This document shows positions 2,947 to 31,765 of a stretch of DNA of 32,000 bases, one piece after another (within the stretch, counting starts at the first letter, position 1; each line of letters opens with the position of its first letter). Origin of the DNA: Coprobacillaceae bacterium. GTDB lineage: Bacteria; Bacillota_I; Bacilli_A; Erysipelotrichales; Coprobacillaceae. The notes below the pieces were generated by a model, which saw only the letters and a program-made list of their open reading frames with translations, was not told where the DNA came from and did no database searches. A program made the position numbers and the translations under genes. The stretch is from assembly GCA_963675915.1 (NCBI GenBank), contig OY780959.1, positions 1,020,001 through 1,052,000 on the forward strand. The letters run 5' to 3'.

Positions 2947-3029
2947 GTTGTCAGCTCCTTCTTTGCGGTAACTTAATACTACCACAAATATTTGTGTGTT
3001 TCACTGACAACTATCCTAACACACAGGGC
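2710..3029 (-). mobile_element. 5' stub of an IS3-family element (chimeric left end), truncated at its frameshift heptamer
   Basis: The left terminus and 5' UTR (2947..3029) differ by 2 nt from 20496..20568. The coding part matches the orfA at 31481..31765. It is cut right after TTTTAAAG by the solo IR at 2687..2709. Confidence 0.8.
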
Positions 3030-3142
3030 AACCCTACCTACTCCAAATTCATCCGTCATTTAACAACTTAAAAATTCAAATAATATAATTTGAAGTAATA
3101 TTGTAGCTCAAATAGTATATATTATTGAAGGAGGTGATTTTA

Positions 3143-17419: not shown

Positions 17420-18481
17420 TTATTGATTTGGATTTAGAAATACTTCATTTGGCAATGTCCAATTCCTGATATTTCTACCATTCCATCTTTCGGGATGGGC
17501 TGATTTTGCAGCTTCATAAACTTTACGACGATTATCCATGACTAACTCGCCTTCACCATTATGACGTTGAGCAGGTGTGAGAAAATTGATTCCGCTGTGA
17601 TGATGTTCATATCGATACCAGTTAACGAAGTTGGCGCACCACAAACGCGCATCATCAAGGCTTCGGAATCCTTTGGGTTGATAATTTGGTCTGAACTTTA
17701 ATGTCTTGAACAGACTCTCGGCATACGGGTTGTTATTGCTGACTCTTGGCCTGCTATTTGATGGCGTGATGCCGAGTTGATATAGCGTCGCAAGCATCGT
17801 AGCTCCCTTCATCGGACTCCCATTATCCGAGTGTAATACAAGCGGATCAGTTGATAATACACGTTGTGACAGTGCAGTTCGTCTGATGAGTTCGCTGGCA
17901 TGTTCAGCTGATTCTTCTTCCCATACTTCCCAACCAACAATATCACGGCTGTACAAGTCTGATATCAGGTAAAGATAGTAGAATTTTCCCTTGATTGGGC
18001 CGTTGAGATAAGTAATATCCCACATCCATATTTGATTGGGCGCAACCGCCACATGAGTAGAAATTGGCCGCTTCTTCGGTTCTTCACTACGTCCTCGATG
18101 GTTTTGCATCTTTTGTTCTTTCAACACTCTGTAAAACGTTGATTCTGAAGCAAGATATTTGCCTTGGTCGGCTAGAGCGGGAACTATCTCACAAGGAGGC
18201 ATACTGGCGAATTTAGGCTTATTTACTGTATCAATGATTTCATTACGTTCATCTGTTGTAAGCTTGTTGGCTGGATCCGGTCTCTTGGCTGTCGGTCGTA
18301 AATCTTCGATGGTACCAATGTTTTTCAACTGCTTCATCCAGCGGTAATACGTACGTTCCGTAATCCCTAATTCTTTGCAGGCATTGAAGAGTTTGGCACC
18401 ACTTTCCACAGCAGCTTCGATTAGTGCAATGGCTTTAATGCGATCTGAGGTACTAATCATTCGTCCTCGGGATCCCCCCAA
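17420..18481 (-). CDS. IS3-family OrfB (DDE integrase-like), expressed by -1 frameshift from OrfA
   Basis: HTH followed by WMWDITYL, HSDNGSPM, NNPYAESLFKTLK (DDE). It overlaps orfA in the -1 frame. Confidence 0.88.
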   Translation of the reverse strand: MGGSRGRMISTSDRIKAIALIEAAVESGAKLFNACKELGITERTYYRWMKQLKNIGTIEDLRPTAKRPDPANKLTTDERNEIIDTVNKPKFASMPPCEIVPALADQGKYLASESTFYRVLKEQKMQNHRGRSEEPKKRPISTHVAVAPNQIWMWDITYLNGPIKGKFYYLYLISDLYSRDIVGWEVWEEESAEHASELIRRTALSQRVLSTDPLVLHSDNGSPMKGATMLATLYQLGITPSNSRPRVSNNNPYAESLFKTLKFRPNYQPKGFRSLDDARLWCANFVNWYRYEHHHSGINFLTPAQRHNGEGELVMDNRRKVYEAAKSAHPERWNGRNIRNWTLPNEVFLNPNQ

Positions 18482-18951
18482 ATCGCATTTGCCTTTTTTC
18501 TTAAAACTAGAAGTGCAGCAGTTTCGGCCAGAGCTTTTTCCTTTCTAGTGAGTTCCTTCTCTAATCGTTTGTTTTCTTTTTCAGTAACTTTGAGTTCTTT
18601 GTTTAAGCGTGCAGCTTCTTGAGCAACACCACCATTGGCGTTCATGCAAGCGTCTTTCCAGGCTAGAATTTGCTCAACGTAGAGACCTTTTTTACGCGCA
18701 TACTCAGCTAGTTCAGTTTCATTCATGCTTGAAGTTTCAACAACTATTAGAAATTTATCCTGGGTACTCCATTTATCTGAAACAGCATCATTTCCAGGAG
18801 CAGCAACACCTCCAGCACGAGCTTTATTTCTCCAATTTCGAAGGGTCTGTTCAGAGATGCCTTCTTCTTTTGAAATCTCACTGATTGCTTCATTGTTGGG
18901 AGGAAGCATCCTCCGGGTTAGTGAATCTTTGAATTCTTTACTATATTTCAT
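18457..18951 (-). CDS. IS3-family OrfA (HTH + leucine zipper)
   Basis: MKYSKEFKDSLTRRMLPPNNEAISEISKEEGISEQTLRNWRNK... plus a coiled coil. ATG at 18951. Its SD has been displaced 1.5 kb away by the IS110 insertion. Confidence 0.85.
   Translation of the reverse strand: MKYSKEFKDSLTRRMLPPNNEAISEISKEEGISEQTLRNWRNKARAGGVAAPGNDAVSDKWSTQDKFLIVVETSSMNETELAEYARKKGLYVEQILAWKDACMNANGGVAQEAARLNKELKVTEKENKRLEKELTRKEKALAETAALLVLRKKANAIWGDPEDE
18493..18499 (-). promoter_or_regulatory. Programmed -1 frameshift heptamer A AAA AAG
   Basis: The orfA frame reads AGA AAA AAG GCA and orfB is open in the -1 frame. This is the classical IS3-family slippery site. Confidence 0.75.
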
Positions 18952-18961
18952 GTTATCAGCT

Positions 18962-19228
18962 TGTATGATTAACTTGTACACAAAATAGATACAAGTATCA
19001 TACTTTTCCTTTCATAATTATTCTTGATATTTTATGATGAAATAGACATGAGTACATTTTAATGTATACTGTAGCGTGACTACTTCCTGGAGAGTAAATC
19101 CATCGGTCTATTTTATCTTTAATTAGTTGGATAAGTCTTTGAACTTTTATTTCTAGCAAGTGTATGAGAATAGGTCGCCGATGGTTTCTATCTTGTGTCA
19201 AAACATTTTAGAAAGGCGGTCTTTTTTC
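18962..19228 (+). ncRNA. Candidate IS110 bridge (seeker) RNA region in the non-coding left end
   Basis: Established for IS110/IS621-type elements: a structured guide RNA is encoded 5' of the recombinase. Here 267 nt are non-coding. There is a long-range stem CCATCGG (19100..19106) with CCGATGG (19178..19184), and a local hairpin around 19052..19070. The exact RNA ends are unknown. Confidence 0.45.
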
Positions 19229-20395
19229 ATGGCAAAAAAACTTGTAGGCATTGATATTGCCAAAAACTTACATTTCGCCTCGATTGTCGATTCAAACGGT
19301 GAGGTTTTTGAAAAAGCTTTTCCTTTTGAAAACAACAAGGCAGGTTTCGAACTTCTTATGTCTAAAGTCAATGACTTTGACAAAGAAAACATCGTATTTG
19401 GAATGGAGTCAACAGCTCACTATTCCAATAATTTAAGTAATTTTTTATTGATCAACGGATTTCGGGTCGTTATCATCAACCCTTTGCAGACCCACGCTCT
19501 TAGAAAAACCCAAATGCGTGATGCCAAGAATGATAAAATCGATTCTATGCTTATCTGTATGGCTCTCACCTTGAATCTTGGTAATGAAATATCTTTGAAC
19601 GATACTCTGAATGAATTGTATGATCTATGCAAATCATACCATGATGTTACAAAATTGAATGCAAGAGCAAAAATTCAAATGATTACTTATCTTGATCAAA
19701 ATTTCCCTGAATATCACAAAGAATTTGGCAAAAGCACTTTTGGAAAAGCATCTTTTGCATTGCTCAAAGAATATCCGACTCCTGAGAAAATAAATAAAGT
19801 TCGAATTGACAAGCTGACTAACATTCTTCACAACAATTCACGCGGCCGGTATGGCCGAGAAAAAGCGCTTAGACTCAAACAACTAGCGCAAAACTCTGTT
19901 GGCATACAGAGAGATTCCTTGGCTGTAAGAATGCAGTTAACTATTCTTCAAATCGAACTTTACGATAATCAGAAGAAGGAACTCAAGGACCAGATACGTT
20001 GTATAGTGGAATCTCTTGATTCACCTATCATGACAATCCCTGGCATGGGATATGTACAGGCGGGAATGATTCTTTCTTCTATTAAAGATATTAACTTATT
20101 TTCTCATCCAAGTAAAGTACTGGCATATGCCGGTTTGGATCCAAGAGTTAGACAATCAGGGAAATTCAATGCCTCATCGACAAGAATGTCCAAGCGCGGA
20201 AATTCAATGCTTAGATATGCTCTAATATGGGCTGCGAACAATGTTCAAAAAAATGCCAAAACATTTAATCTGTATTACACGAAAAAAATTAACGAAGGTA
20301 AAAGCCACTATAACGCACTGGGTCATACAGCCAATAAATTGGTAAGGGTAATCTACAAACTATTAACAACCAATCAAGAATACCAAAATATTTAA
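19229..20395 (+). CDS. IS110-family DEDD recombinase/transposase
   Basis: MAKKLVGIDIAKNLHF, FGMESTAHY, INPLQT, DKIDS (RuvC-like DEDD) plus the C-terminal IPGMGYVQAGMILS...RMSKRGNSMLRYAL domain. The start is moved to 19229 from the ORF-track 19160. Confidence 0.9.
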   Translation: MAKKLVGIDIAKNLHFASIVDSNGEVFEKAFPFENNKAGFELLMSKVNDFDKENIVFGMESTAHYSNNLSNFLLINGFRVVIINPLQTHALRKTQMRDAKNDKIDSMLICMALTLNLGNEISLNDTLNELYDLCKSYHDVTKLNARAKIQMITYLDQNFPEYHKEFGKSTFGKASFALLKEYPTPEKINKVRIDKLTNILHNNSRGRYGREKALRLKQLAQNSVGIQRDSLAVRMQLTILQIELYDNQKKELKDQIRCIVESLDSPIMTIPGMGYVQAGMILSSIKDINLFSHPSKVLAYAGLDPRVRQSGKFNASSTRMSKRGNSMLRYALIWAANNVQKNAKTFNLYYTKKINEGKSHYNALGHTANKLVRVIYKLLTTNQEYQNI

Positions 20396-20610
20396 AGGAT
20401 ATTTCAAAAAAATTGAATATTTAGCCTCTTTTTAGTGCGCCCAAAAACAGGAATCATTTTTTATCAAAAATCGTTTGACTTTTCATAGTTGGTCTCCTTC
20501 TTTGCGGCAACTTAATACTACCACAAATGTTTGTGTGTTTCACTGACAACTATCCTAACACACAGGGCTACCTAAATAGATCTAGATTAAATCTTTTCTC
20601 AAATTGTATT

Positions 20611-21431: not shown

Positions 21432-21868
21432 TGTAACATCAAGGTACAGTTGATAAAATGAAATCACTACAAGGAGATGTTACCGATGTCGAAAAATCAA
21501 AAATATGAACCTGAGTTCAAAGAAAAGATTATCCGCCTTCATCTAGAGGAAGGTCGAACAAAAAAGAGTTTAACCGAAGAATACAACTTGGGTAAGGGTA
21601 CCCTTACTTACTGGCTGCAACAACGCCGCAAAGAATGCCAATCTAATCCAACAATCCAAAACGAAAATGATGCATATGAAGAAGTTAAACGCCTTCGAAA
21701 AGAATTGGCTGAAGCCAAAAAGTGTAGCTAGTCAATTTATTTGATGGATGATTCTTCAAATTATATGGGCCTTCTTTTGGTCCTTTTTTGATGTTCTTCA
21801 AATTAATTGAATGGGATATTCAGTTTATTTGAAATGATGTTTTAGAGGAGAAAGAAAATAATCGCCTG

Positions 21869-22177
21869 TTAGACGATTATCCCTGACTCGTTTAATTTGT
21901 AGATGGCTTGTGATATGGCTTCGCTGCTGATTGGATCTATCTCGCGCAATAGAGCTGACTTGTTCCAAAATTTGTCTTTGAAATATGATAGTTCCAGTCC
22001 CAGCTTCATCAACGGGATGCAAATCCAGTTTCCTTTGGCTGATTTACCTACTATCACTTCGATTTCATTGCCGTCATATCTTAGCTGGAATTCACACTTA
22101 TCTGGGTTTTGCGAGACTATTACTATCTCGTTGGCCCATGTTTTTTCATCATAGTTGCAGAAGTATTCGATTATCAA
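21869..22177 (-). CDS. Transposon ORF4, 102-aa protein of unknown function
   Basis: Conserved between the copies (1 aa difference). The TTG start overlaps the ATPase stop (TTGA), with GAGGT 7 nt upstream. I recognise no motif. Confidence 0.6.
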   Translation of the reverse strand: MIIEYFCNYDEKTWANEIVIVSQNPDKCEFQLRYDGNEIEVIVGKSAKGNWICIPLMKLGLELSYFKDKFWNKSALLREIDPISSEAISQAIYKLNESGIIV

Positions 22178-22977
22178 ATTACTACCTCTTCGATTGTTTC
22201 TAGGATTAAATCGGAATCAATTACTTCGATTTTTCTGATTGCTCCGATAAACATTGCCCGGTCGCATATCCGATCAATAACCCGACAGGTGCCGTTGGAT
22301 GCATTGATGATTGCTTCAATGGCATTGTCGTTGAACACTTCTTGAATTGTTTTTCCGCCTTGGAGCTTGTCTTTGATATAAGCAAGACTTTCAGTTTTGT
22401 TTAACGGCTCCAGTTTGTAATTGATAATCATTCGCTGACGCAGTGGTTCATGAGCGGTCAATTTAAGGTTCCTGGTTATTGTCGGCAATCCGACCATCAA
22501 GACTACCGCATGATCCTTGGAATCCATATCAAAATTGAAGATCATCTTCAAATCATTAAGAATGGCGTTATTCATGTAATTACATTCATCAAAGATAAAC
22601 ACCGGGGTAATCCTTTTTTCGTAAATCAACTGGTTTATGGCTGATTGGATCTCCCTGAACAGATCATTCTTTCGATACCGAGGAGTCAAATCCAGCGACT
22701 CAGCCAGTTGCATATAGAATTCCTTGACTGTAAGGGTCGACATTGACAAATAAATTATCTTGTAAGCTGATTTGGGGAGTGTTTTGATATAGTTCCTGAT
22801 CATGGTTGTTTTGCCATGTCCAGGTTCACCGACTATTAGTCCGAAACCTTTGATTTCAAAAAGGCTGTTAAGGCGTACTTTCAATTCCTGGTATTCACTT
22901 GTTTCAATAAATAAATTCTTTGAGTTCTTGATAAACGGATTGAATTCCAATCCGTATCTGGTCCAATATTTTTCCAT
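22174..22977 (-). CDS. TniB/ExeA-like AAA+ ATPase (transposition helper)
   Basis: YWTRYGLEFNPF, Walker A GEPGHGKTT, Walker B VFIFDECN, MVGLPTI...LRQRM and SNGTCRVIDRICDRA are typical of TniB/ExeA (AAA_22) proteins. The ATG overlaps the transposase stop (TAATG). Confidence 0.8.
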   Translation of the reverse strand: MEKYWTRYGLEFNPFIKNSKNLFIETSEYQELKVRLNSLFEIKGFGLIVGEPGHGKTTMIRNYIKTLPKSAYKIIYLSMSTLTVKEFYMQLAESLDLTPRYRKNDLFREIQSAINQLIYEKRITPVFIFDECNYMNNAILNDLKMIFNFDMDSKDHAVVLMVGLPTITRNLKLTAHEPLRQRMIINYKLEPLNKTESLAYIKDKLQGGKTIQEVFNDNAIEAIINASNGTCRVIDRICDRAMFIGAIRKIEVIDSDLILETIEEVVI

Positions 22978-24224
22978 TAATCTTCTCCTCCGCATAATTT
23001 TGGCTGCACTCGTTTTACTTTTGAATTAGCGTTTTTATCAAGTAGGTGAATCCGTTCCAGTTCGCCGGTATTCTTGTTAACTATATAGACGTTTTCCAAG
23101 TCCGGAGTATATCGGAACATATGCCTTTCACCAGAATAGATATAATCAATCTCGTATTCCCGATTATCTATTTTGATTACCGAATCAGTACTGACAGACC
23201 GCTCTACTTCGAACAGGAAAGTATTGTCGATAAAGTCATCATCAAGCCTTTTGATCAGATTGCTTTCCTGAAAAAAACGTTGATGAGGTGTCAATCCATT
23301 CAAAGACGAATGCACCTTGTTGTTGTAATCATTGATGAACTGGCTTAAATCCTGCTTCAAACCTTCTAGATTGTTTGTGTAATCTTTTATGTTTATTTGG
23401 GCGAAGAACTGATCTTTAATCGTCCGAAACACCCGCTCAATTTTTGATTTTCCTTCCGGCGAGTACGGTTTGCAGTAGCTGATGGTTGAATTAATCCTTG
23501 CTGCAATCATCTTGATCTGGTGATTTCGATAATTGGAGCCGTTGTCAAACCTGAACATCTCAGGAATTCCGTATTTGGTGACCGCACTTTTCATAGTATC
23601 CATCAAATTGACTGTGTTGTCATTCAAATACAAATCAAGATGGACGATCATCCTTGAAGCATCATCAATCAGGGCAATCATATAAGTTCGGTTTTTCTTG
23701 CCATTAATGGTTATGTAAGGACCGACCGAACTGTCACCAGCCCAGTTCATATTGATATGGGGCACTTCGTAGCGGCGCATGTCTTTCTTGTTTGATAGAC
23801 GCAATTCCGACTTTATCTGATTGACACATCGATTAACGGTTGATAGCGAAACATCAGTTTTCTTGATGATTCCCTTTTCAATCAACTTGCCGTAAATTAC
23901 AGTTGCCGGCAATCTAGGATAGGTTGTCTTATAATATTTGATTGTTTCAACGATGTCATCATCCAGTCTTCTTGACTTGCCACAATCACTTCGCTTTTGA
24001 GGAATCAATCCATCGAAGCCTTTCTCTTCGTAAGCAGCAATCCACCTGGAGATGGTACTGCTTGAGACAGTGAAATCACGGTTGTCGAAACTCTTATAGA
24101 CTTTCTTGGTAGCTTCCGTAATCGCCTGATTCTTAGACCATGCAGCATCGTAATTTCCGGTAATGATGTCATGAATGATCCGATGGCGCATCAACGCTAC
24201 GTATTCTTGTTCTTTTTTATCCAT
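22977..24224 (-). CDS. DDE transposase of the TnsB/TniA/MuA type (rve core + Mu-transposase-like C-terminal barrel)
   Basis: 415 aa with N-terminal HTHs. Candidate DDE residues lie in NWAGDSS, FRFDNGSNY and PYSPEGKSKIERVFRTIK. The C-terminal RSVSTDSVIKIDNREYEI...GERHMFRYTPDLENVYIV resembles the Mu/TniA beta-barrel. Confidence 0.82.
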   Translation of the reverse strand: MDKKEQEYVALMRHRIIHDIITGNYDAAWSKNQAITEATKKVYKSFDNRDFTVSSSTISRWIAAYEEKGFDGLIPQKRSDCGKSRRLDDDIVETIKYYKTTYPRLPATVIYGKLIEKGIIKKTDVSLSTVNRCVNQIKSELRLSNKKDMRRYEVPHINMNWAGDSSVGPYITINGKKNRTYMIALIDDASRMIVHLDLYLNDNTVNLMDTMKSAVTKYGIPEMFRFDNGSNYRNHQIKMIAARINSTISYCKPYSPEGKSKIERVFRTIKDQFFAQINIKDYTNNLEGLKQDLSQFINDYNNKVHSSLNGLTPHQRFFQESNLIKRLDDDFIDNTFLFEVERSVSTDSVIKIDNREYEIDYIYSGERHMFRYTPDLENVYIVNKNTGELERIHLLDKNANSKVKRVQPKLCGGED

Positions 24225-24272
24225 ATAATACCTCCGTCACCCACTATATACTAATAGAATCGATTATTTAAC

Positions 24273-24827
24273 TCATCCTATGTGGTTGATGGTATACAGG
24301 ATATTTATGGTATTTCTACATTGCATGAACTGCATCAAATAATTTGAAAAACAACTTTCAACAAGTTGGTTAATATCATTTGATTCAATTCTCAACGACA
24401 TCAAACGTTGCTGCCAAACATTGATATACCTGCTCACAACATTATAAATTTCACACTCAGACATATAGGGATTTCGATCAAGAATGGCTTTTAATAGTTT
24501 CTGATTATTTTTATGTATGGAAATCTCAACTTGAACAGCCAACGGGATACTTGAATATGGAACCAAACATGAAAGAAGAATTGCGTGGGTTCTGCCACAA
24601 TCCTTACATCTTAGCCGCATTATTCTCAAATTAAAAAAGCCAAAAGGCAGTTTCACCCTTCGGTTATAATAACCATGAATTATGAAATTGCCCTGGCAGT
24701 CACCAGCGCAACTCAAGGAAAAACGATTGATATTGGAAACCAATTCATTATAATAGGCCTGGAGTTTGGCCCGCGAATCAATCTTCATCAATTTATTATT
24801 GATTTTTACTCCGTGATACGTTATCAT
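24273..24827 (-). CDS. Transposon ORF1, 184-aa Cys4 zinc-ribbon protein (resembles what I recall as DUF6431; unverified)
   Basis: CxxxC...HGYYNRRVKLPFGFF.LRIMRLRCKDCGRTHAILLSCLVPYSS. The start is set at the MITYH shared with copy 2; the ORF-track extension to 24941 covers the upstream hairpin. Confidence 0.65.
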   Translation of the reverse strand: MITYHGVKINNKLMKIDSRAKLQAYYNELVSNINRFSLSCAGDCQGNFIIHGYYNRRVKLPFGFFNLRIMRLRCKDCGRTHAILLSCLVPYSSIPLAVQVEISIHKNNQKLLKAILDRNPYMSECEIYNVVSRYINVWQQRLMSLRIESNDINQLVESCFSNYLMQFMQCRNTINILYTINHIG

Positions 24828-24844
24828 ATTCTTGTCTATATGGC

Positions 24845-24882
24845 AAATGAGAGAAACTGCTTGGTGGTGGCGTCTCTCATTT
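24845..24882 (-). promoter_or_regulatory. Conserved hairpin 17 nt upstream of ORF1 (copy 1)
   Basis: AAATGAGAGA and TCTCTCATTT form a 10-bp stem with an 18-nt loop. It carries a compensatory base pair relative to copy 2. Confidence 0.6.
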
Positions 24883-25055
24883 TTTCTTTCTCTAGATTTA
24901 TTACCAATAAAATAACAAAGCAAAAGGTCAATCTCAAGCAATTTGAAGAAAAATTCATCAAATTATTTGGAATTGACCTTTATTTATTATGACTAGATTA
25001 TGGTTAGATGGCATCAAATAAAATGGCTAGCTACAAAAAAGGAAAATGAATTCTT

Positions 25056-25062
25056 AAAAAAG
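25056..25062 (+). promoter_or_regulatory. Programmed -1 frameshift heptamer A AAA AAG
   Basis: The zero frame reads TTA AAA AAG GCA and orfB is open in the -1 frame. Confidence 0.7.
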
Positions 25063-25703
25063 GCAGCGGCATTCTTTGCAAAGGAAATCGATTAGAACAA
25101 TACCGTTTCATTGAAACATATCACCAAGAGTTTGGAGTCCGTTGGTTGTTGAGAAAATTCAAACTTTACCCTAACTCTTACTATAATTATTTGAAAGACC
25201 AGCAAAGAGACGCTCGCGAGGAAAAATGCAGTATTCAACGTAAAATAGTGGAAATCTATCACGAGGAAAACGGTGTCGCCGGTTATCGTATGATCAATGA
25301 TTACTTGAAGCAAAAGAAGATTTACTATTGCAATGCAACAATCTATAAATATTTGCGAGAACTCGGTTTAAAATCAATAGTCCGCAAAAGAAAGCCTGAT
25401 TACAAAAAGGGGCCGGCAAATAAGATATTTCCAAACCTGCTGAACCAGGATTTTATTACAGATAAGCCAAACAAGATTTGGTGCACTGACTTCACGTACT
25501 TGAGACAAAGAGACGGTAGTTTCCACTACAACTGTACCATCATCGATCTTGTCGCTAGCCAGTTTATATGGTAAGTATTTCTAGGATTTTATGCAAATTA
25601 AATAGAGGCCATTGCCAATTAATTTGAATGTTTATTCTTCAAATTAGTTGAACCTGACCTCTTTTTTTGTTACCTTGTTGATAAATATTCCATAGAAAGA
25701 AAA

Positions 25704-25741
25704 AAACGAGAGACCCAACCTGCAAGTAGTTTCTCTCGTTT
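25704..25741 (+). promoter_or_regulatory. Conserved hairpin 17 nt upstream of ORF1 (copy 2)
   Basis: AAACGAGAGA (25704..25713) and TCTCTCGTTT (25732..25741) form a 10-bp stem with an 18-nt loop. Confidence 0.6.
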
Positions 25742-25758
25742 GCCATATAGACAAACGT

Positions 25759-26313
25759 ATGATAACTTATCACAACGATAAAATCAAGAGTAAATTACTC
25801 GAAATCGATTCCGAATCAAAGCTCCAAGCTTTTTATAACGAAGCTGTAAATGATATTAACCGTTACGCCATCGGTTGTGTCAACTCATGCAATGGTAATC
25901 ACATCATTCATGGTTATTATAACCGAAGGGTAAAACTGCCTTTTGGCTTTTTCAGGTTGCGGATAATGCGGCTAAGATGCAAGGATTGCGGTAGAACCCA
26001 TGCAATTCTTCTTTCATGTTTGGTTCCATATTCAAGTATCCCGTTGGCTGTTCAAGTTGAGATTTCCATACATAAAAATAATCAGAAACTATTAAAAGCC
26101 ATTCTTGATCGAAATCCCTATATGTCTGAGTGTGAAATTTATAATGTTGTGAGCAGGTATATCAATTTTTGGCAGCAACGTTTGATGTCATTGAGAATTG
26201 AATCAAATGATATTAACCGTCTTGTTGAAAGCTGTTTTTCAAATTATTTGATGCAGTTCATGCAATGTAGAAATACCATAAATATCCTGTATACAATCAA
26301 CCACATAGGATGA
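25759..26313 (+). CDS. Transposon ORF1, Cys4 zinc-ribbon protein
   Basis: 184 aa. The first ~48 aa are only ~60% identical to copy 1, and the remainder differs at 3 positions. There is no obvious SD. Confidence 0.65.
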   Translation: MITYHNDKIKSKLLEIDSESKLQAFYNEAVNDINRYAIGCVNSCNGNHIIHGYYNRRVKLPFGFFRLRIMRLRCKDCGRTHAILLSCLVPYSSIPLAVQVEISIHKNNQKLLKAILDRNPYMSECEIYNVVSRYINFWQQRLMSLRIESNDINRLVESCFSNYLMQFMQCRNTINILYTINHIG

Positions 26314-26361
26314 GTTAAATAATCGATTCTATTAGTATATAGTGGGTGACGGAGGTATTAT

Positions 26362-27609
26362 ATGGATAAAAAAGAACAAGAATACGTAGCGTTGATGCGC
26401 CATCGGATCATTCATGACATCATTACCGGAAATTATGATGCTGCATGGTCTAAGAATCAGGCGATTACGGAAGCTACCAAGAAAGTCTATAAGAGTTTCG
26501 ACAACCGTGATTTCACTGTCTCAAGCAGTACCATCTCCAGATGGATTGCTGCTTACGAAGAAAAAGGCTTCGATGGATTGATTCCTCAAAAGCGGAGTGA
26601 TTGTGGCAAGTCAAGAAGACTGGATGATGACATCGTTGAAACAATCAAATATTATAAGACAACCTATCCTAGATTGCCGGCAACTGTAATATACGGCAAG
26701 TTGATTGAGAAAGGAATCATCAAGAAAACTGATGTTTCCCTATCAACCGTTAACCGATGTGTCAATCAGATAAAGTCGGAATTGCGGCTTTCAAACAAGA
26801 AAGACATGCGTCGCTACGAAGTGCCCCATATCAATATGAACTGGGCTGGCGACAGTTCGGTCGGCCCTTACATAACCATTAATGGCAAGAAGAACCGGAC
26901 ATACATGATTGCCCTGATCGATGATGCTTCAAGGATGATCGTCCATCTTGATTTGTATTTGAATGACAACACAGTCAATTTGATGGATACCATGAAAAGT
27001 GCGGTAACAAAATATGGAGTTCCTGAGATGTTCAGGTTTGACAACGGCTCCAATTATCGAAATCACCAGATCAAGATGATTGCAGCAAGGATTAATTCAA
27101 CCATTAGCTACTGCAAACCGTACTCGCCGGAAGGAAAATCAAAAATTGAGCGGGTGTTTCGGACGATCAAAGATCAGTTCTTCGCCCAAATAAACATAAA
27201 AGATTACACAAACAATCTAGAAGGTTTGAAGCAGGATTTAAGCCAGTTCATCAATGATTACAACAACAAGGTGCATTCGTCTTTGAATGGATTGACACCT
27301 CATCAACGTTTTTTTCAGGAAAGCAACCTTATCAAAAGGCTTGATGATGACTTTATCGACAACACTTTCCTGTTCGAAGTAGAGCGGTCTGTCAGTACTG
27401 ATTCGGTAATCAAAATAGATAATCGGGAATACGAGATTGATTATATCTATTCTGGTGAAAGGCATATGTTCCGATATACTCCGGACTTGGAAAACGTCTA
27501 TATAGTCAACAAGAATACCGGCGAACTGGAACGGATTCACCTACTTGATAAAAACGCCAATTCAAAAGTAAAACGAGTGCAGCCAAAATTATGCGGAGGA
27601 GAAGATTAA
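26362..27609 (+). CDS. DDE transposase of the TnsB/TniA/MuA type
   Basis: 415 aa with 1 aa difference from copy 1 (KYGVPEMF versus KYGIPEMF). SD GGAGG lies upstream. Confidence 0.82.
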   Translation: MDKKEQEYVALMRHRIIHDIITGNYDAAWSKNQAITEATKKVYKSFDNRDFTVSSSTISRWIAAYEEKGFDGLIPQKRSDCGKSRRLDDDIVETIKYYKTTYPRLPATVIYGKLIEKGIIKKTDVSLSTVNRCVNQIKSELRLSNKKDMRRYEVPHINMNWAGDSSVGPYITINGKKNRTYMIALIDDASRMIVHLDLYLNDNTVNLMDTMKSAVTKYGVPEMFRFDNGSNYRNHQIKMIAARINSTISYCKPYSPEGKSKIERVFRTIKDQFFAQINIKDYTNNLEGLKQDLSQFINDYNNKVHSSLNGLTPHQRFFQESNLIKRLDDDFIDNTFLFEVERSVSTDSVIKIDNREYEIDYIYSGERHMFRYTPDLENVYIVNKNTGELERIHLLDKNANSKVKRVQPKLCGGED

Positions 27610-28412
27610 TGGAAAAATATTGGACCAGATATGGATTGGAATTCAATCCGTTTATCAAGAACTCAAAGAATTTATTTATTGAAACAAGTGAATACCAGGA
27701 ATTGAAAGTACGCCTTAACAGCCTTTTTGAAATCAAGGGTTTCGGACTAATAGTCGGTGAACCCGGCCATGGCAAAACAACCATGATCAGAAACTATATC
27801 AAAACACTCCCCAAATCAGCTTACAAGATAATTTATTTGTCAATGTCGACCCTTACAGTCAAGGAGTTCTATATGCAACTAGCTGAGTCGCTGGATCTGA
27901 CTCCTCGGTATCGAAAGAATGATCTGTTCAGGGAGATCCAATCAGCCATAAACCAGTTGATTTACGAAAAAAGGATTACCCCGGTGTTTATCTTTGATGA
28001 ATGTAATTACATGAATAACGCCATTCTTAATGATTTGAAGATGATCTTCAATTTTGATATGGATTCCAAGGATCATGCTGTAGTCTTGATGGTCGGATTG
28101 CCGACAATAACAAGGAACCTGAAATTAACCGCTCATGAACCATTGCGCCAGCGAATGATTATCAATTACAAACTTGAGCCATTGAACAAGAGTGAAAGTC
28201 TTGCTTATATCAAAGACAAGCTCCAAGGCGGAAAAACAATTCAAGAAGTGTTCAATGATAATGCAATTGAGGCAATCATCAATGCATCCAACGGCACCTG
28301 TCGGGTTATTGATCGGATATGTGACCGGGCAATGTTTATCGGAGCAATCAGAAAAATCGAAGTAATTGATTCCGATTTAATCCTAGAAACAATCGAAGAG
28401 GTAGTAATTTGA
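27609..28412 (+). CDS. TniB/ExeA-like AAA+ ATPase
   Basis: 267 aa from the ATG overlapping the transposase TAA. SD GGAGGA. It has 1 aa difference from copy 1. Confidence 0.8.
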   Translation: MEKYWTRYGLEFNPFIKNSKNLFIETSEYQELKVRLNSLFEIKGFGLIVGEPGHGKTTMIRNYIKTLPKSAYKIIYLSMSTLTVKEFYMQLAESLDLTPRYRKNDLFREIQSAINQLIYEKRITPVFIFDECNYMNNAILNDLKMIFNFDMDSKDHAVVLMVGLPTITRNLKLTAHEPLRQRMIINYKLEPLNKSESLAYIKDKLQGGKTIQEVFNDNAIEAIINASNGTCRVIDRICDRAMFIGAIRKIEVIDSDLILETIEEVVI

Positions 28413-28717
28413 TAATCGAATACTTCTGCAACTATGATGAAAAAACATGGGCCAACGAGATAGTAATAGTCTCACAAAACCCAGATAAGTGTGAATTCCA
28501 GCTAAGATATGACGGAAATGAAATCGAAGTGATAGTAGGTAAATCAGCCAAAGGGAACTGGATTTGCATCCCGTTGATGAAGCTGGGACTGGAACTATCA
28601 TATTTCAAAGACAAATTTTGGAACAAGTCAGCTCTATTGCGCGAGATAGATCCAATCAGCAGCGAAGCAATATCACAAGCAATCTACAAAATAAACGAGT
28701 CAGGGATAATCGTCTAA
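28409..28717 (+). CDS. Transposon ORF4, 102-aa protein of unknown function
   Basis: TTG start coupled to the ATPase stop. Conserved in both copies. Confidence 0.6.
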   Translation: MIIEYFCNYDEKTWANEIVIVSQNPDKCEFQLRYDGNEIEVIVGKSAKGNWICIPLMKLGLELSYFKDKFWNKSALLREIDPISSEAISQAIYKINESGIIV

Positions 28718-29163
28718 AAAGGCGATTATTTTCTTTTTCCTCTAAAACATCATTTCAAATAAACTGAATATTCCATTCGATTAATTTGAAGAGCATCAAA
28801 AAAGGGCCAAAAGAAGGTCCATATAATTTGAAGAATCATCCATCAAATAAATTGACTAGCTACACGATCTTTATGACCGCTCAGTAATTGCGACATTGAG
28901 TGGTAGCAATATTACTGCAAAGTTAGCTGTCGATACATTGAAAATAGCCCTCACCAGACATAAACCTGGTAAAGGGATTATCCTGCATTCAGATCAAGGT
29001 GTGCAATTTTCAGCAAAAGAATTTAATGATTATTGTGAAGAAAACCATGTTCAACAAAGTATGAGTCGAGCAGGATGTCCATATGACCCCCATGTGTTAG
29101 GATAGTTGTCGTATAGAGGGATTTGGATTATACTTATAAAAACCGATCCAAGGAGACCAAGAA

Positions 29164-29640
29164 ATGACTAAAACATATACGACTGAAGAAAAAATAAAAT
29201 TGATCAATCAAACATTGCCACCACTCAACAAAACTGTTGTTCAGATTGCTGCTGAAACTGGAATCAAAACTTCGACTCTTTATTCCTGGAAGCGTAGATA
29301 CCTAAAATGTGCCGTTAATTCCAAAATCAAGGAACGTTACAGCAAGGCTGAAAGATTCCACTTTATCGTCGAATCCGCTTCGTTGAACGAACACGAACTT
29401 GGAGAATATTGCCGGCAAAAAGGAATTTATCCTGATGAGCTGACAAAGTGGAAAAATGAATTTCTCAATGTTTCCAGTCAAGATGATTCTGCGAAGGCCG
29501 AATTGCACAAGGAGCGAAGAAAACGTAAAGAGCTGGAAAAAGAACTCAAGCGCAAAGAAAAGGCTTTGGCTGAAGCTGCTGCGCTACTGGTTCTTGAAAA
29601 AAAGCTCCAAGCAATTTGGGACGAAGAAGAGGAAGATTAA
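29164..29640 (+). CDS. IS3-family OrfA
   Basis: 158 aa with an HTH (VVQIAAETGIKTSTLYSWKRRY) and a C-terminal coiled coil. Confidence 0.85.
   Translation: MTKTYTTEEKIKLINQTLPPLNKTVVQIAAETGIKTSTLYSWKRRYLKCAVNSKIKERYSKAERFHFIVESASLNEHELGEYCRQKGIYPDELTKWKNEFLNVSSQDDSAKAELHKERRKRKELEKELKRKEKALAEAAALLVLEKKLQAIWDEEEED
29598..29604 (+). promoter_or_regulatory. Programmed -1 frameshift heptamer A AAA AAG
   Basis: The zero frame reads GAA AAA AAG CTC. The -1 frame continues KAPSNLGRRRGRLTS into OrfB. Confidence 0.75.
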
Positions 29641-30719
29641 CCTCTCTCAAATTGCGTAAACTAATCGTTTCATTGATCAAAGACGCCAACGAAAATGGTG
29701 CTCGATTGATTCCGGCGTGTAAAGTGGTTGGAATATCCAAACGAACATATGAACGGTGGACCAATGAAACAGATGTGTTGGCTGACAAACGAACGACAGC
29801 TATTAGACCTGTGCCGGCCAATAAGCTAAGCGATGATGAGCGCCAAGTCGTAATTGACACTGTCAATTCTCCTAAATACAATTCTCTGCCTCCATCAACG
29901 ATAGTGCCTAAGTTAGCTGACGAAGGTAAATATATTGGCTCAGAATCAACCATTTACCGCATTCTAAGGGAAAATAAACAATTGAAACATCGTGGAAGAA
30001 GCAAGGAGCCTCAAAAGCAGGTCCCGACAACACATATTGCCAAAGCACCCAACGAGGTTTGGAGTTGGGATATTACTTGGTTGCACCGTAAGGATGTTAG
30101 GGGAGTTTATTACAAGTTATACATGATAATGGATATTTTCAGCCGGAAGATTGTCGGACATGAAGTGTGGGAAACGGAAAATGCCGAATATTCCCAAACT
30201 CTTATAAAAAGGACACTGTTAAAAGAAAAGATAAGTGGCAGATCGCTTGTGCTGCATTCAGATAATGGTGGCCCAATGAAAGCATCATCATTCCTGGGAA
30301 CGCTTGAAAAATTAGGTGTGCAAAGCTCGTTTTCAAGGCCGAGAGTAAGTAATGACAATCCATATTCGGAAGCACTGTTCAAAACGCTAAAATACATTCC
30401 TAAGTATCCAACCAGCGGGTTTGAATCACTGGAACATGCCCGAGAATGGACTAGTGAATTCGTCCATTGGTACAATGAAGTCCATTACCATAGCGGCATC
30501 AATTATGTAACCCCAGGAAGCAGACATCGTGGCGAAGATATCGAGATATTGAAGAATCGCAAAAGTGTTTACGCCCTTGCAAGAATGAAGCATCCTGAGA
30601 GATGGAGCGGTAATACTAAAACCTGGGAATATCAAACAACGGTTGCCCTGAATCCAACCGATGAAGAAAAAAACATGATCCAGAAAAAGAAATATCAAAC
30701 AAACCAAATCTACGCATAA
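29616..30719 (+). CDS. IS3-family OrfB (DDE)
   Basis: WSWDITWL, HSDNGGPM, DNPYSEALFKTLK. About 50% identical to the OrfB at 17420..18481. Confidence 0.88.
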   Translation: MGRRRGRLTSLKLRKLIVSLIKDANENGARLIPACKVVGISKRTYERWTNETDVLADKRTTAIRPVPANKLSDDERQVVIDTVNSPKYNSLPPSTIVPKLADEGKYIGSESTIYRILRENKQLKHRGRSKEPQKQVPTTHIAKAPNEVWSWDITWLHRKDVRGVYYKLYMIMDIFSRKIVGHEVWETENAEYSQTLIKRTLLKEKISGRSLVLHSDNGGPMKASSFLGTLEKLGVQSSFSRPRVSNDNPYSEALFKTLKYIPKYPTSGFESLEHAREWTSEFVHWYNEVHYHSGINYVTPGSRHRGEDIEILKNRKSVYALARMKHPERWSGNTKTWEYQTTVALNPTDEEKNMIQKKKYQTNQIYA

Positions 30720-31480: not shown

Positions 31481-31765
31481 ATGGCTAGAAGAGAACGTAG
31501 AGTATTCAGTGAAGAATTCAAACAACAAATGGTAAATTTATACCGTAGTGGAAAACCGCGAAGCGAGATTATCAGAGAATATGATTTGACACCCTCATCA
31601 TTTGGAAAATGGATTAGACAGTCAAGTGACAGCGGATCTTTCAAAGAAAAAGATAACCGCAGTCCTGAAGAAAACGAATTAATCCAACTACGCAAAGAAA
31701 ACCAAAAATTGAAGATGGAAAATGATATTTTAAAGCAGGCAGCTCTGATTATGGGACGAAAGTAA
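31481..31765 (+). CDS. IS3-family OrfA
   Basis: 94 aa, nearly identical from EEFKQQMVNLYRSGKP onward to the stub at 2695..2946. Confidence 0.88.
   Translation: MARRERRVFSEEFKQQMVNLYRSGKPRSEIIREYDLTPSSFGKWIRQSSDSGSFKEKDNRSPEENELIQLRKENQKLKMENDILKQAALIMGRK

Follow-up and report, generated by a model that had tools for sequence, protein, structure and literature searches.

A compact AAA+-assisted DDE transposon with DUF6431 and DUF6618 genes in a Coprobacillaceae genome and its widespread relatives

A 32-kb stretch of a Coprobacillaceae bacterium genome (assembly GCA_963675915.1, contig OY780959.1, positions 1,020,001 to 1,052,000; 32,000 nucleotides, hereafter the window) carries an intact, autonomous, cargo-free transposable element of insertion sequence (IS) size at 25550-28864. 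This element, copy B, is one of two related copies in the window and belongs to a very widespread, unnamed family. The family has an invariant operon encoding a DUF6431 protein (open reading frame 1, ORF1), a DDE transposase and a MuB-like AAA+ ATPase, and a DUF6618 gene (ORF4) is the fourth gene in some lineages. It is an abundant, uncharacterised AAA+-assisted DDE transposon, a known kind of system in a new version. The identity of the element and a core mechanism of the Mu/Tn552 type are held with high confidence. All results are computational and come from sequence analysis and predicted structures of the window and its relatives.

Structure of the element

The features of copy B are listed below by window position and strand.

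25550-28864 (3315 bp), plus strand: copy B, intact transposon; begins TGT, finishes ACA; four same-strand genes
25544-25549, no strand: left target-site duplication CGATCT; the same hexamer stands at 28865-28870
28865-28870, no strand: right target-site duplication CGATCT, a perfect direct repeat of the left hexamer
25550-25571, plus strand: left terminal inverted repeat TGTCGCTAGCCAGTTTATATGG, 17/22 against the reverse complement of 28843-28864
28843-28864, minus strand: right terminal inverted repeat TGTAGCTAGTCAATTTATTTGA, ending ...ACA; 22 bp, imperfect, 17/22 against the left TGTCGCTAGCCAGTTTATATGG
25605-25668, plus strand: left-end subterminal region; inverted TAATTTGAA motif pair (25620-25629, 25637-25645) within a long imperfect hairpin, then T7 (25662-25668)
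28781-28791 and 28823-28833, plus strand: right-end subterminal repeats TAATTTGAAGA, spaced 42 bp, with a small hairpin (28804-28820) in between
25759-26313, plus strand: ORF1, DUF6431 zinc-ribbon protein, 184 aa (Pfam PF20020)
26362-27609, plus strand: DDE transposase, 415 aa; helix-turn-helix (HTH), rve core and a C-terminal region aligning with the TnsB/MuA beta-barrel
27609-28412, plus strand: AAA+ ATPase, 267 aa; Walker A GEPGHGKT, Walker B IFDE; TAATG overlap with the transposase stop
28409-28717, plus strand: ORF4, DUF6618, 102 aa (Pfam PF20323); TTG start within a TTGA overlap, GAAGAGGT upstream
28703-28742, plus strand: terminator-like hairpin and T-run at the ORF4 stop; 13-pair stem, then CTTTTTCCTC; marks the operon end

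An earlier note, made from the letters of the window alone, had described TGT...ACA ends, subterminal repeats, a 6-bp duplication and four genes at 25550-28864, and all of these are present. The flanks of the element rejoin to one IS3-family orfB, and the homology between copies A and B begins exactly at the left terminal inverted repeat, at 25550. The translational coupling of ORF4 to the ATPase was likewise seen, in the TTGA overlap with GAAGAGGT upstream. Mechanical ORF calling gave an ATPase of 273 aa from 27591; the family alignment favours 267 aa from 27609, with GGAGG upstream and the TAATG overlap, which is the length and the overlap given in the note. No cargo, resolvase or TniQ was found in copy B via Pfam, NCBIfam and PADLOC, as the note had stated; none of the four ORFs contains a resolvase domain, and the element has no room for a further ORF.

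Of the seven exact occurrences of AATTTGAAG in the window, six lie in the ends of copies A and B. Those in copy B are at 25637-45 (minus), 28783-91 (plus) and 28825-33 (plus), with a one-mismatch inverted partner at 25621-29. When read inward as TTCTTCAAATTA, the motif stands at positions 31 and 73 from the right end and at position 87 from the left end, with the inverted partner at left-end position 71. The motif at left-end position 87 faces inward just as those of the right end do (L87, R31, R73). With one mismatch allowed, AATTTGAAG is not enriched across the window (36 observed versus 28 expected), so the evidence from the subterminal repeats is their placement and not their count. Survey loci L007 and L008 have the left-end layout as well, and L061 and L080 have it with motifs of different sequence. 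From its sequence, the left-end subterminal region would be an inward-facing terminator and/or a set of protein-binding sites.

Inward-facing features of a hairpin plus T-run are located at both element ends (25605-25668 and 28804-28826). The left one (25605-25668) encloses the AATTTGAA palindrome, and comparable hairpins were seen in Clostridium butyricum, L014, L061 and L080. These end hairpins may insulate the operon from outside transcription.

The transposase and ATPase core

Residues D164, D227 and E263 of the transposase are invariant in the family alignment, and the Pfam domains rve and HTH_32 were matched. The best PHROG profile was the MuA-type phrog_310 (1e-51, residues 5-386). In the profile search of the Protein Data Bank (PDB), TnsB of the CRISPR-associated transposon (CAST) ShCAST was matched at 5.8e-11 over residues 153-384, a stretch that takes in the catalytic core and the barrel after it, and IstA of IS5376 was matched at 1e-8. 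TnsB_V-K was matched in PADLOC at 4.6e-9. The Pfam domain Mu-transpos_C scored above threshold in relatives of the transposase and was not reported for the window protein itself. The invariant rve triad and the TnsB and phrog_310 alignments bear out the earlier description of a 415-aa DDE transposase with a Mu-like C-terminal barrel.

The ATPase matched Pfam AAA_22 at 4e-20 and TniB weakly, and its Walker A and B residues are invariant. AAA_22 was found in 32/32 family ATPases and TniB in 9/32, and IstB_IS21 of Pfam gave no match. As a single sequence the ATPase had no match in the PDB, and a family profile was required. With this profile, MuB (8xvb) came first at 2e-11, followed by Cdc6/ORC and by VchTnsC at 3e-4. 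The PHROG match was phrog_296, 'DNA transposition protein', at 5e-25.

A direct comparison was made with Tn552. Its p480 (from pN315) is 27% identical to the transposase over 297 aa (E 8e-22). The p271 remnant is 37% identical to the ATPase over 41 aa only, the pN315 copy of p271 being truncated; FIET.EY and Walker A are common to both. On these sequence comparisons, the core is a Mu/Tn552-type transposase-ATPase pair with a catalytic domain close to IS481. The features of the Mu/Tn552/Tn7 superfamily were found together, namely an RNase-H-fold DDE domain with barrel alignment, an adjoining AAA+ ATPase, and TGT/ACA ends with subterminal repeats; some relatives within the family end with TAT...ATA instead of TGT...ACA. 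The PHROG, PDB profile and p480 matches uphold the placement near Mu, Tn7 and Tn552 proposed in the note, and the affinity to IS481 is added to it.

Comparison with known transposons

Tn552 of Staphylococcus aureus also has a DDE transposase followed by an overlapping ATPase of ~270 aa, and it makes 6- or 7-bp duplications like the family here. It differs by a BinL resolvase with a res site, bla cargo, a longer transposase of 480 aa and the lack of DUF6431 and DUF6618. Subterminal repeat arrays are present in both (PMC8649781).

The strongest profile matches were to MuA and MuB of phage Mu, which have the same A-then-B gene order. The element here is no phage, however, and its duplication is 6-7 bp versus 5 bp for Mu. 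Its transposase of 415 aa has no detectable enhancer-binding domain, and the ORF1 zinc ribbon is unlike Ner or the Mu repressor. The ner gene of Mu is a small DNA-binding gene located upstream, as is ORF1.

Tn7, Tn5053 and the CAST elements share the TnsB and TnsC profile matches, the TGT ends, and the logic of a transposase, an AAA+ ATPase and a zinc-ribbon protein. TnsA, TniR, a TniQ domain, an attachment site and cargo are all lacking here, and the duplication is not 5 bp. The zinc-ribbon gene is upstream of the transposase gene and is of a different family.

IS21 (IstA/IstB) is similar as a compact IS with a DDE transposase and a dedicated AAA+ helper, and IstA of IS5376 is among the matches. 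IstB is DnaC-like (Pfam IstB_IS21), whereas the ATPase here is AAA_22/MuB-like, and IS21 is without a third or fourth gene. In the ISL3 and ISH6 transposases the N-terminal module is homologous to the ORF1 ribbon; here, ORF1 is a separate polypeptide, the transposase is of another superfamily, and no frameshift fusion is evident.

Distribution of the family

A total of 2219 transposase homologues were found in the protein collection. They are mostly on contigs of ~3 kb, which is expected for a collapsed multicopy repeat. ORF1 as a single-sequence query gave 3 matches only; an alignment was used as the query instead, and 644 ORF1 clusters were found. The genome scan gave 305 confirmed loci, and 80 were kept for the survey. 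Hidden Markov models (HMMs) built from the window genes were run against all ORFs of these 80 loci. The closest genome locus (97%) is in a Coprobacillaceae metagenome-assembled genome, and the remainder are mainly in Lachnospiraceae, Clostridium and Erysipelotrichales, with some Bacilli.

The order ORF1-transposase-ATPase was observed in every locus with enough upstream DNA, and the seven misses are all at contig ends. No locus that reaches far enough lacks the ATPase. ORF4 was found in ~19 of the 80 close-relative loci, always directly after the ATPase. One assembly of C. butyricum carries at least 6 copies of a 3042-bp three-gene version with TAT...ATA ends. The architecture is shared by distant plasmid relatives with 25-37% transposase identity, in Geobacillus, C. 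estertheticum (four genes), Streptomyces, Rhodococcus and Burkholderia. In Burkholderia and Streptomyces their upstream gene is matched by DUF6431, and in Rhodococcus the match is sub-threshold. No DNA nearly identical to the element was found in the plasmid and phage collections.

A three-gene DUF6431-DDE-AAA cassette has been reported in Clostridium sp. JS66, with 15 copies, flanking a 63-kb deletion (2026 preprint). DUF6431 otherwise appears in the literature as an entry in a gene table (PMC12323340), and no mention of DUF6618 was found in full-text literature searches. No functional description of the family was found in the full-text literature, a search that did not extend to the IS catalogues ISfinder and TnCentral. 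Literature on ExeA/COG3267, Tn552-like elements, IS481 with an ATPase and Geobacillus IS481 gave no description of the family either.

Comparison of the two copies

Copy A is inverted relative to copy B and has the same four genes.

21723-25035 (3313 bp), minus strand: copy A, inverted; duplication AAAAAG at 21717-22 and 25036-41
21869-22177, minus strand: copy A ORF4
22174-22977, minus strand: copy A ATPase
22977-24224, minus strand: copy A transposase
24273-24827, minus strand: copy A ORF1

Over 2830 nt, copies A and B share 97% identity. Identity drops to 71-74% in the left ~340 bp (25550-25888 versus 24698-25035), which contain the end, the leader and the first ~43 ORF1 codons. The repeat motif, the hairpin and the promoter boxes are kept inside this divergent stretch. 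The left part of copy A is similar to the lineage of L007 and of survey protein P0003, which indicates that the element is a recombinant mosaic. Because each copy has its own 6-bp duplication and the left ~340 bp are divergent, the two copies represent separate insertions of elements that are related and partly mosaic.

A single IS3-family element hosts both copies head-to-head (window 21477-29100), in the order orfA 21477-21722, copy A, 25036-25549, copy B, and the remainder of orfB. Copy A is inserted in orfA and copy B in orfB, and the insertion points are 514 bp apart. Adjacent elements were also found at L158 and L135.

Synonymous versus non-synonymous differences between the copies are 30/1 for the transposase, 23/1 for the ATPase and 5/1 for ORF4. 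ORF1 has 35 synonymous and 37 non-synonymous differences, with a ratio of non-synonymous to synonymous rates (dN/dS) of 0.21 and 87% identity. Each of the four genes is therefore under purifying selection. The note had described ORF1 and ORF4 as conserved in the two copies; this holds well for ORF4, with its one non-synonymous difference, and for ORF1 only at 87% identity.

Relation to the IS481 family

IS481 is the best NCBIfam model for the transposase, with 170.6 bits, and the PGAP annotation of the relative on Geobacillus pGeo12a is 'IS481 family transposase'. TGT ends together with a 6-bp duplication are typical of IS481 (PMC6794481, PMC11406308), and the element here has both. The element might then be an already catalogued IS481-family insertion sequence with passenger genes and nothing new. 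This explanation is rather improbable. The score is under the 224 cut-off of the model, and the MuA/MuB-type PHROG matches are much stronger. Mu-transpos_C is present in the relatives. IS481 elements encode one protein and no ATPase, whereas the ATPase and DUF6431 genes here are invariant, translationally coupled and under purifying selection, and are not variable passengers. Full-text literature searches, which did not extend to ISfinder and TnCentral, gave only the passing DUF6431 mentions cited above, no DUF6618 and no functional description. An IS481-type NCTAGN target is not present at the window insertions.

Insertion sites and rearrangements

The duplications are 6-7 bp across the family insertions, and no target motif is shared among at least 16 independent insertions. 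The sites of identical or nearly identical elements include CGATCT, AAAAAG, CTGAAG, ATATCG, TCATAC, ACAATG, CTTATAT, ATTGAC and CGTTAT; among the C. butyricum copies, duplications of 6 bp (TCATAC, ACAATG) and 7 bp (CTTATAT) occur. The sites in another clade include ATACAT, ACAAGAC, GAGAAGT, GTCACAA and CCCAGAC. Spurious calls of the automatic end and duplication caller at L001-L003, L027, L031, L062, L082, L107 and L119 were discarded. The lack of a common sequence at the insertion sites argues against a site-specific target selector. RNA-guided targeting by a left-end RNA was also considered and rejected, as identical C. butyricum copies are located at unrelated target sequences.

In C. butyricum GCA_013149575.1, the inverted copies L001 and L002 have swapped flanking hexamers (ATTGAC/CGTTAT and CGTTAT/ATTGAC). 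The swap is the signature of a chromosomal inversion between the copies, via homologous recombination or intramolecular replicative transposition.

The DUF6431 protein ORF1

ORF1 matched Pfam PF20020 (DUF6431) with 32.5 bits, above the gathering threshold of 26.6, and 93 of 93 homologues matched as well, so that the family name put forward in the note is correct. The family alignment conserves the start MIT, C40, C42/44, H51, C74, C77, H81, VPYSQ and W138. The 184-aa window protein has C40, C44, C74 and C77, the CxxxC...CxxC pattern described in the note. A very basic beta-ribbon, HGYYxR...RxxCxxCxxTH in the family alignment, and a C-terminal motif, CF..F.RQFMQIK.T.NIL, are further characteristics, and the latter is strongly conserved. 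The AlphaFold2 model from 93 sequences has a mean predicted local distance difference test score (pLDDT) of 78.8 and a predicted template modelling score (pTM) of 0.56. It consists of short N-terminal helices, a three-stranded ribbon (48-85) and a helical domain (96-172), and the conserved tail has low pLDDT. With its universal presence, ORF1 is almost certainly functional.

Among the 93 family members, 84 matched positions ~43-105 of the NCBIfam ISH6 transposase model, the N-terminal zinc-ribbon region (best 2e-8), and 33 matched the N-terminus of the ISL3 model (best 3e-6). The Burkholderia homologue has weak HTH_28 and HTH_Tnp_ISL3 matches right after the ribbon, and the Rhodococcus homologue has HTH_23. 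These ISH6, ISL3 and HTH matches suggest that ORF1 is a free-standing zinc-ribbon plus HTH DNA-binding module, as found at the N-terminus of ISL3 and ISH6 transposases. Judged from these relatives, ORF1 probably binds DNA. The chances are about even that it acts on the element's own DNA and not on targets. Its most likely role, as far as homology can suggest one, is that of a regulator and/or a transpososome assembly subunit on the ends or an operator. The low pLDDT of the conserved tail is typical of a docking peptide, and in the model the tail would therefore probably dock onto the transposase or the ATPase. In IS1, the left end encodes InsA, a small zinc-finger protein that acts as a repressor and binds the IS1 ends. 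The proposed role of ORF1 on ends or an operator is analogous in logic to InsA or to the Ner protein and repressor of Mu.

The earlier note had proposed ORF1 and ORF4 as candidates for a minimal target-selection or regulatory module and had likened the ORF1 ribbon to that of TniQ/TnsD selectors. In a selector model of this kind, ORF1 would bring the ATPase to chosen targets, and ORF4 would belong to the module. The ORF1 Cys4 ribbon, universal conservation, conserved and probably disordered C-terminal docking motif and size near that of type V-K TniQ are all compatible with such a role. The element contains no other candidate selector, and both window copies lie within one IS3 element. A selector is nevertheless unlikely. 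TniQ was matched by none of the 93 family members in Pfam and was not found in PADLOC. No relative of ORF1 was found in the PDB by sequence profile or by Foldseek, with TniQ and TnsD structures in the library. The ribbon is instead homologous to the N-termini of ISH6 and ISL3 transposases, and the ORF1 gene is upstream of the transposase, whereas tniQ follows the ATPase. The insertions compared above have no common target sequence, and nesting in IS-rich DNA would result just as well if harmful insertions are selected against. The lack of TniQ homology and of a shared target motif thus speaks against ORF1 as a host-site selector of the TniQ/TnsD type.

The DUF6618 protein ORF4

ORF4 was identified as DUF6618 via Pfam PF20323, with 31.5 bits against a gathering threshold of 27. 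The family motif is G.G(S)...vIvG....GNy.CIP....GcELs...D.FWN.E.L. The AlphaFold2 model, of very high confidence (pLDDT 96.7), shows a six-stranded meander followed by two helices. No significant match of the fold or the sequence was found in the PDB, BFVD or the PDB sequence profiles, and none in PHROG or PADLOC. Matches of ORF4 via phmmer to proteins of 860-2000 aa (P0247, P0256 and P0352) were rejected as repeat or composition artefacts.

An exhaustive DUF6618 search gave 112 clusters at 50% identity, nearly all of ~100 aa, and 80 metagenome loci were gathered with a DUF6618 sub-alignment. The ATPase is present on 74 of these 80 loci, nearly always directly upstream, and the loci include far more divergent clades with transposases of ~480 aa. 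The ORF4 start frequently overlaps the ATPase stop. Two DUF6618 genes are without an upstream ATPase (L133:3959-4276 and L142:3959-4276); one of them is solitary and the other adjoins a transposase-ATPase pair on the opposite strand. The DUF6618 homologues P0332 and P0336 (211-222 aa) share a ~100-aa N-terminal extension, KNPYGL...YIKE...TFYDN, for which no Pfam match was found.

The earlier note had proposed that absence from most family members would mark ORF1 or ORF4 as an accidental ORF. ORF1 was found in all loci with upstream DNA. ORF4 is missing in ~3/4 of the close relatives, yet it is a real, superfamily-specific gene. In the transposase tree, built on a set enriched for ORF4, the deep branches are occupied by four-gene elements, and the crown mixes three-gene with four-gene elements. 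Such a distribution is consistent with an ancestral ORF4 and repeated losses. As ORF4 is present in only ~1/4 of close relatives and three-gene elements are multicopy, it is dispensable. Compared with L008, its non-synonymous divergence (dN) is 0.41 versus ~0.165 for the core genes. The near-exclusive linkage to the ATPase, the start overlap, the faster evolution and the dispensability point to an accessory modulator of the ATPase. That ORF4 modulates the ATPase with which it is co-translated is put forward tentatively, as a possibility somewhat short of even.

The fourth position is not always occupied by DUF6618. ORFs of 78-85 aa overlap the ATPase stop in Burkholderia (L171:4593-4829) and Sporosarcina (L169:4550-4807); they were considered as DUF6618 and found to be unrelated. 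Judging by these unrelated ORFs, the fourth position is a slot whose small coupled gene varies. The slot, together with the optional presence, fast evolution and lack of a known fold analogue of ORF4, would be in line with a different function, in which ORF1 and/or ORF4 serve the persistence of the element (anti-host, addiction or anti-defence) and not its transposition. Such a function is very unlikely, since ORF1 is found universally in all phyla concerned and carries a DNA-binding module of the transposase type, PADLOC gave no matches, DUF6618 is almost never away from an ATPase gene, and ORF4 translation is tightly coupled to the ATPase.

A predicted antisense unit in the ORF1 leader

The leader of ORF1 contains two further features, which form a predicted antisense unit at 25697-25787 in copy B, mirrored in copy A at ~24799-24889.

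25704-25741, no strand: hairpin P1, ORF1 leader; 10-bp stem, z-score -3.6; a minus-strand U-run after the stem makes an intrinsic terminator
25759-25787, minus strand: predicted antisense promoter, listed by the promoter scan; -35 TTGATT (25787-25782), 17-nt spacer, -10 TATCAT (25764-25759)

The -10 box TATCAT corresponds, on the opposite strand, to the ORF1 start ATGATA. In a set of 47 diverse members, the sequence at the ORF1 start is invariably ATGATAAC, with the rare ATA codon, and no Shine-Dalgarno sequence for ORF1 was found. TTG is located exactly 17 nt upstream of TATCAT in 45 of the 47 members. This minus-strand TTG is made of the third base of codon 9, which is always C while the residue varies, and of the AA of codon 10. 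At least 4/6 matches to TTGACA were found in 32/47 members, versus 12.8% at control positions. A hairpin with a T-run follows 43-121 nt downstream (median 74) on the minus strand in 44/47 members.

P1 is further supported by compensatory changes. A C-G pair is changed to U-A between copies A and B, and family-wide 12 of 12 pairs have double changes. Counted on the explicit structure, 84 such cells were observed versus 33.5±4.7 in shuffles; 0/500 shuffles reached the observed value, and slid controls were lower. RNAalifold predicted no pairs on the gappy leader alignment, and no Rfam family matched the leader hairpin. The antisense signature is also present in the intermediate clades L087, L143, L145 and L150 and absent from the most distant clade L091. 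These sequence signals make it fairly probable that an antisense RNA of 45-80 nt over the ORF1 leader exists. In IS10, the antisense RNA-OUT covers the 5' end of the transposase mRNA. The analogy is functional, as the predicted RNA here spans the ORF1 leader and not the start codon.

Proposed mechanism

The best overall explanation, favoured with moderate confidence, is a Mu/Tn552-type element in which ORF1 would bind the element's own DNA, ORF4 would be an accessory, and an antisense RNA would exert control. By analogy with Mu and Tn552, the transposase would bind the TGT-terminal inverted repeats and the subterminal repeats, pair the ends and nick at TGT/ACA. The ATP-bound ATPase would bind target DNA with little sequence preference and activate strand transfer, as in the same two systems. 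Strand transfer staggered by 6 bp, and sometimes by 7 bp, would give the duplications, again on the Mu and Tn552 model. ORF1 would bind the element ends or an operator as a regulator and/or an assembly subunit, and its tail would contact the transposase or the ATPase. ORF4, a dispensable accessory, may modulate the ATPase. The predicted antisense RNA, from the promoter with its -10 at the ORF1 start to the leader hairpin, would damp the operon.

Several observations weigh against this explanation. Confidence in the ORF1 model is only moderate, the ISH6 and ISL3 matches of ORF1 are local and far under the family cut-offs, and the HTH matches in its relatives are sub-threshold. A universal ORF1 with a conserved tail would fit a target adaptor as well. 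Two copies 514 bp apart, and adjacent elements at L158 and L135, are unexpected under target immunity of the MuB/TnsC type, and the close nesting could point to a preference for certain DNA. The left subterminal palindrome may be a terminator stem instead of a binding-site palindrome. The IS481 family is thought to use a copy-out-paste-in mechanism without an ATPase. As IS481 is the best-scoring family for the transposase, the chemistry may or may not be replicative.

A more far-reaching proposal is that DUF6431 would be the obligatory third subunit of an unrecognised, cross-phylum Mu-like class of transposons. It would be an ISL3-derived zinc-ribbon/HTH adaptor, unlike TniQ, which would connect end or target DNA to the MuB-like ATPase. 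DUF6618, as a new fold, would tune the ATPase in target choice or immunity, and control would come from a conserved antisense RNA whose hairpin loop is unusually well conserved. This proposal is speculative and doubtful in its full form. If it is true, the element would provide a minimal and experimentally tractable model of AAA+-regulated transposition.

Significance of the family

AAA+-regulated DDE transposons (Mu, Tn7/CAST, IS21 and Tn552) are a source of programmable DNA-insertion tools, and the central open question for them is what directs the ATPase to act at a given place and time. The element here is about as small as such systems get, and both of its non-core proteins are domains of unknown function. 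A role for DUF6431 would annotate hundreds of protein clusters and show a second third-subunit solution besides TniQ. The family is abundant, with thousands of homologues in three phyla and many copies per genome in gut Clostridia. It drives genome rearrangements, as seen in the C. butyricum inversion and in the JS66 deletion of 63 kb between copies (2026 preprint). For annotation, the gain is that three or four genes are to be called jointly as one mobile element.

Other mobile elements in the window

The window is rich in insertion sequences, located at 233-2486, 17420-18981, 19160-20395 and 29164-30719. These include a complete IS66 (tnpA, tnpB and tnpC), a minus-strand IS3-family element and an IS110-family transposase. 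Another IS3-family element follows directly after the interrupted one that hosts copies A and B. A 79-nt direct repeat with 96% identity was found at 2955-3033 and 20494-20572; one of its copies lies a short way downstream of the IS110 gene. A 228-nt inverted repeat, also with 96% identity, is located near both window ends at 2710-2937 and 31508-31735. Both the 79-nt and the 228-nt repeat probably represent other mobile elements, either their ends or fragments of them.

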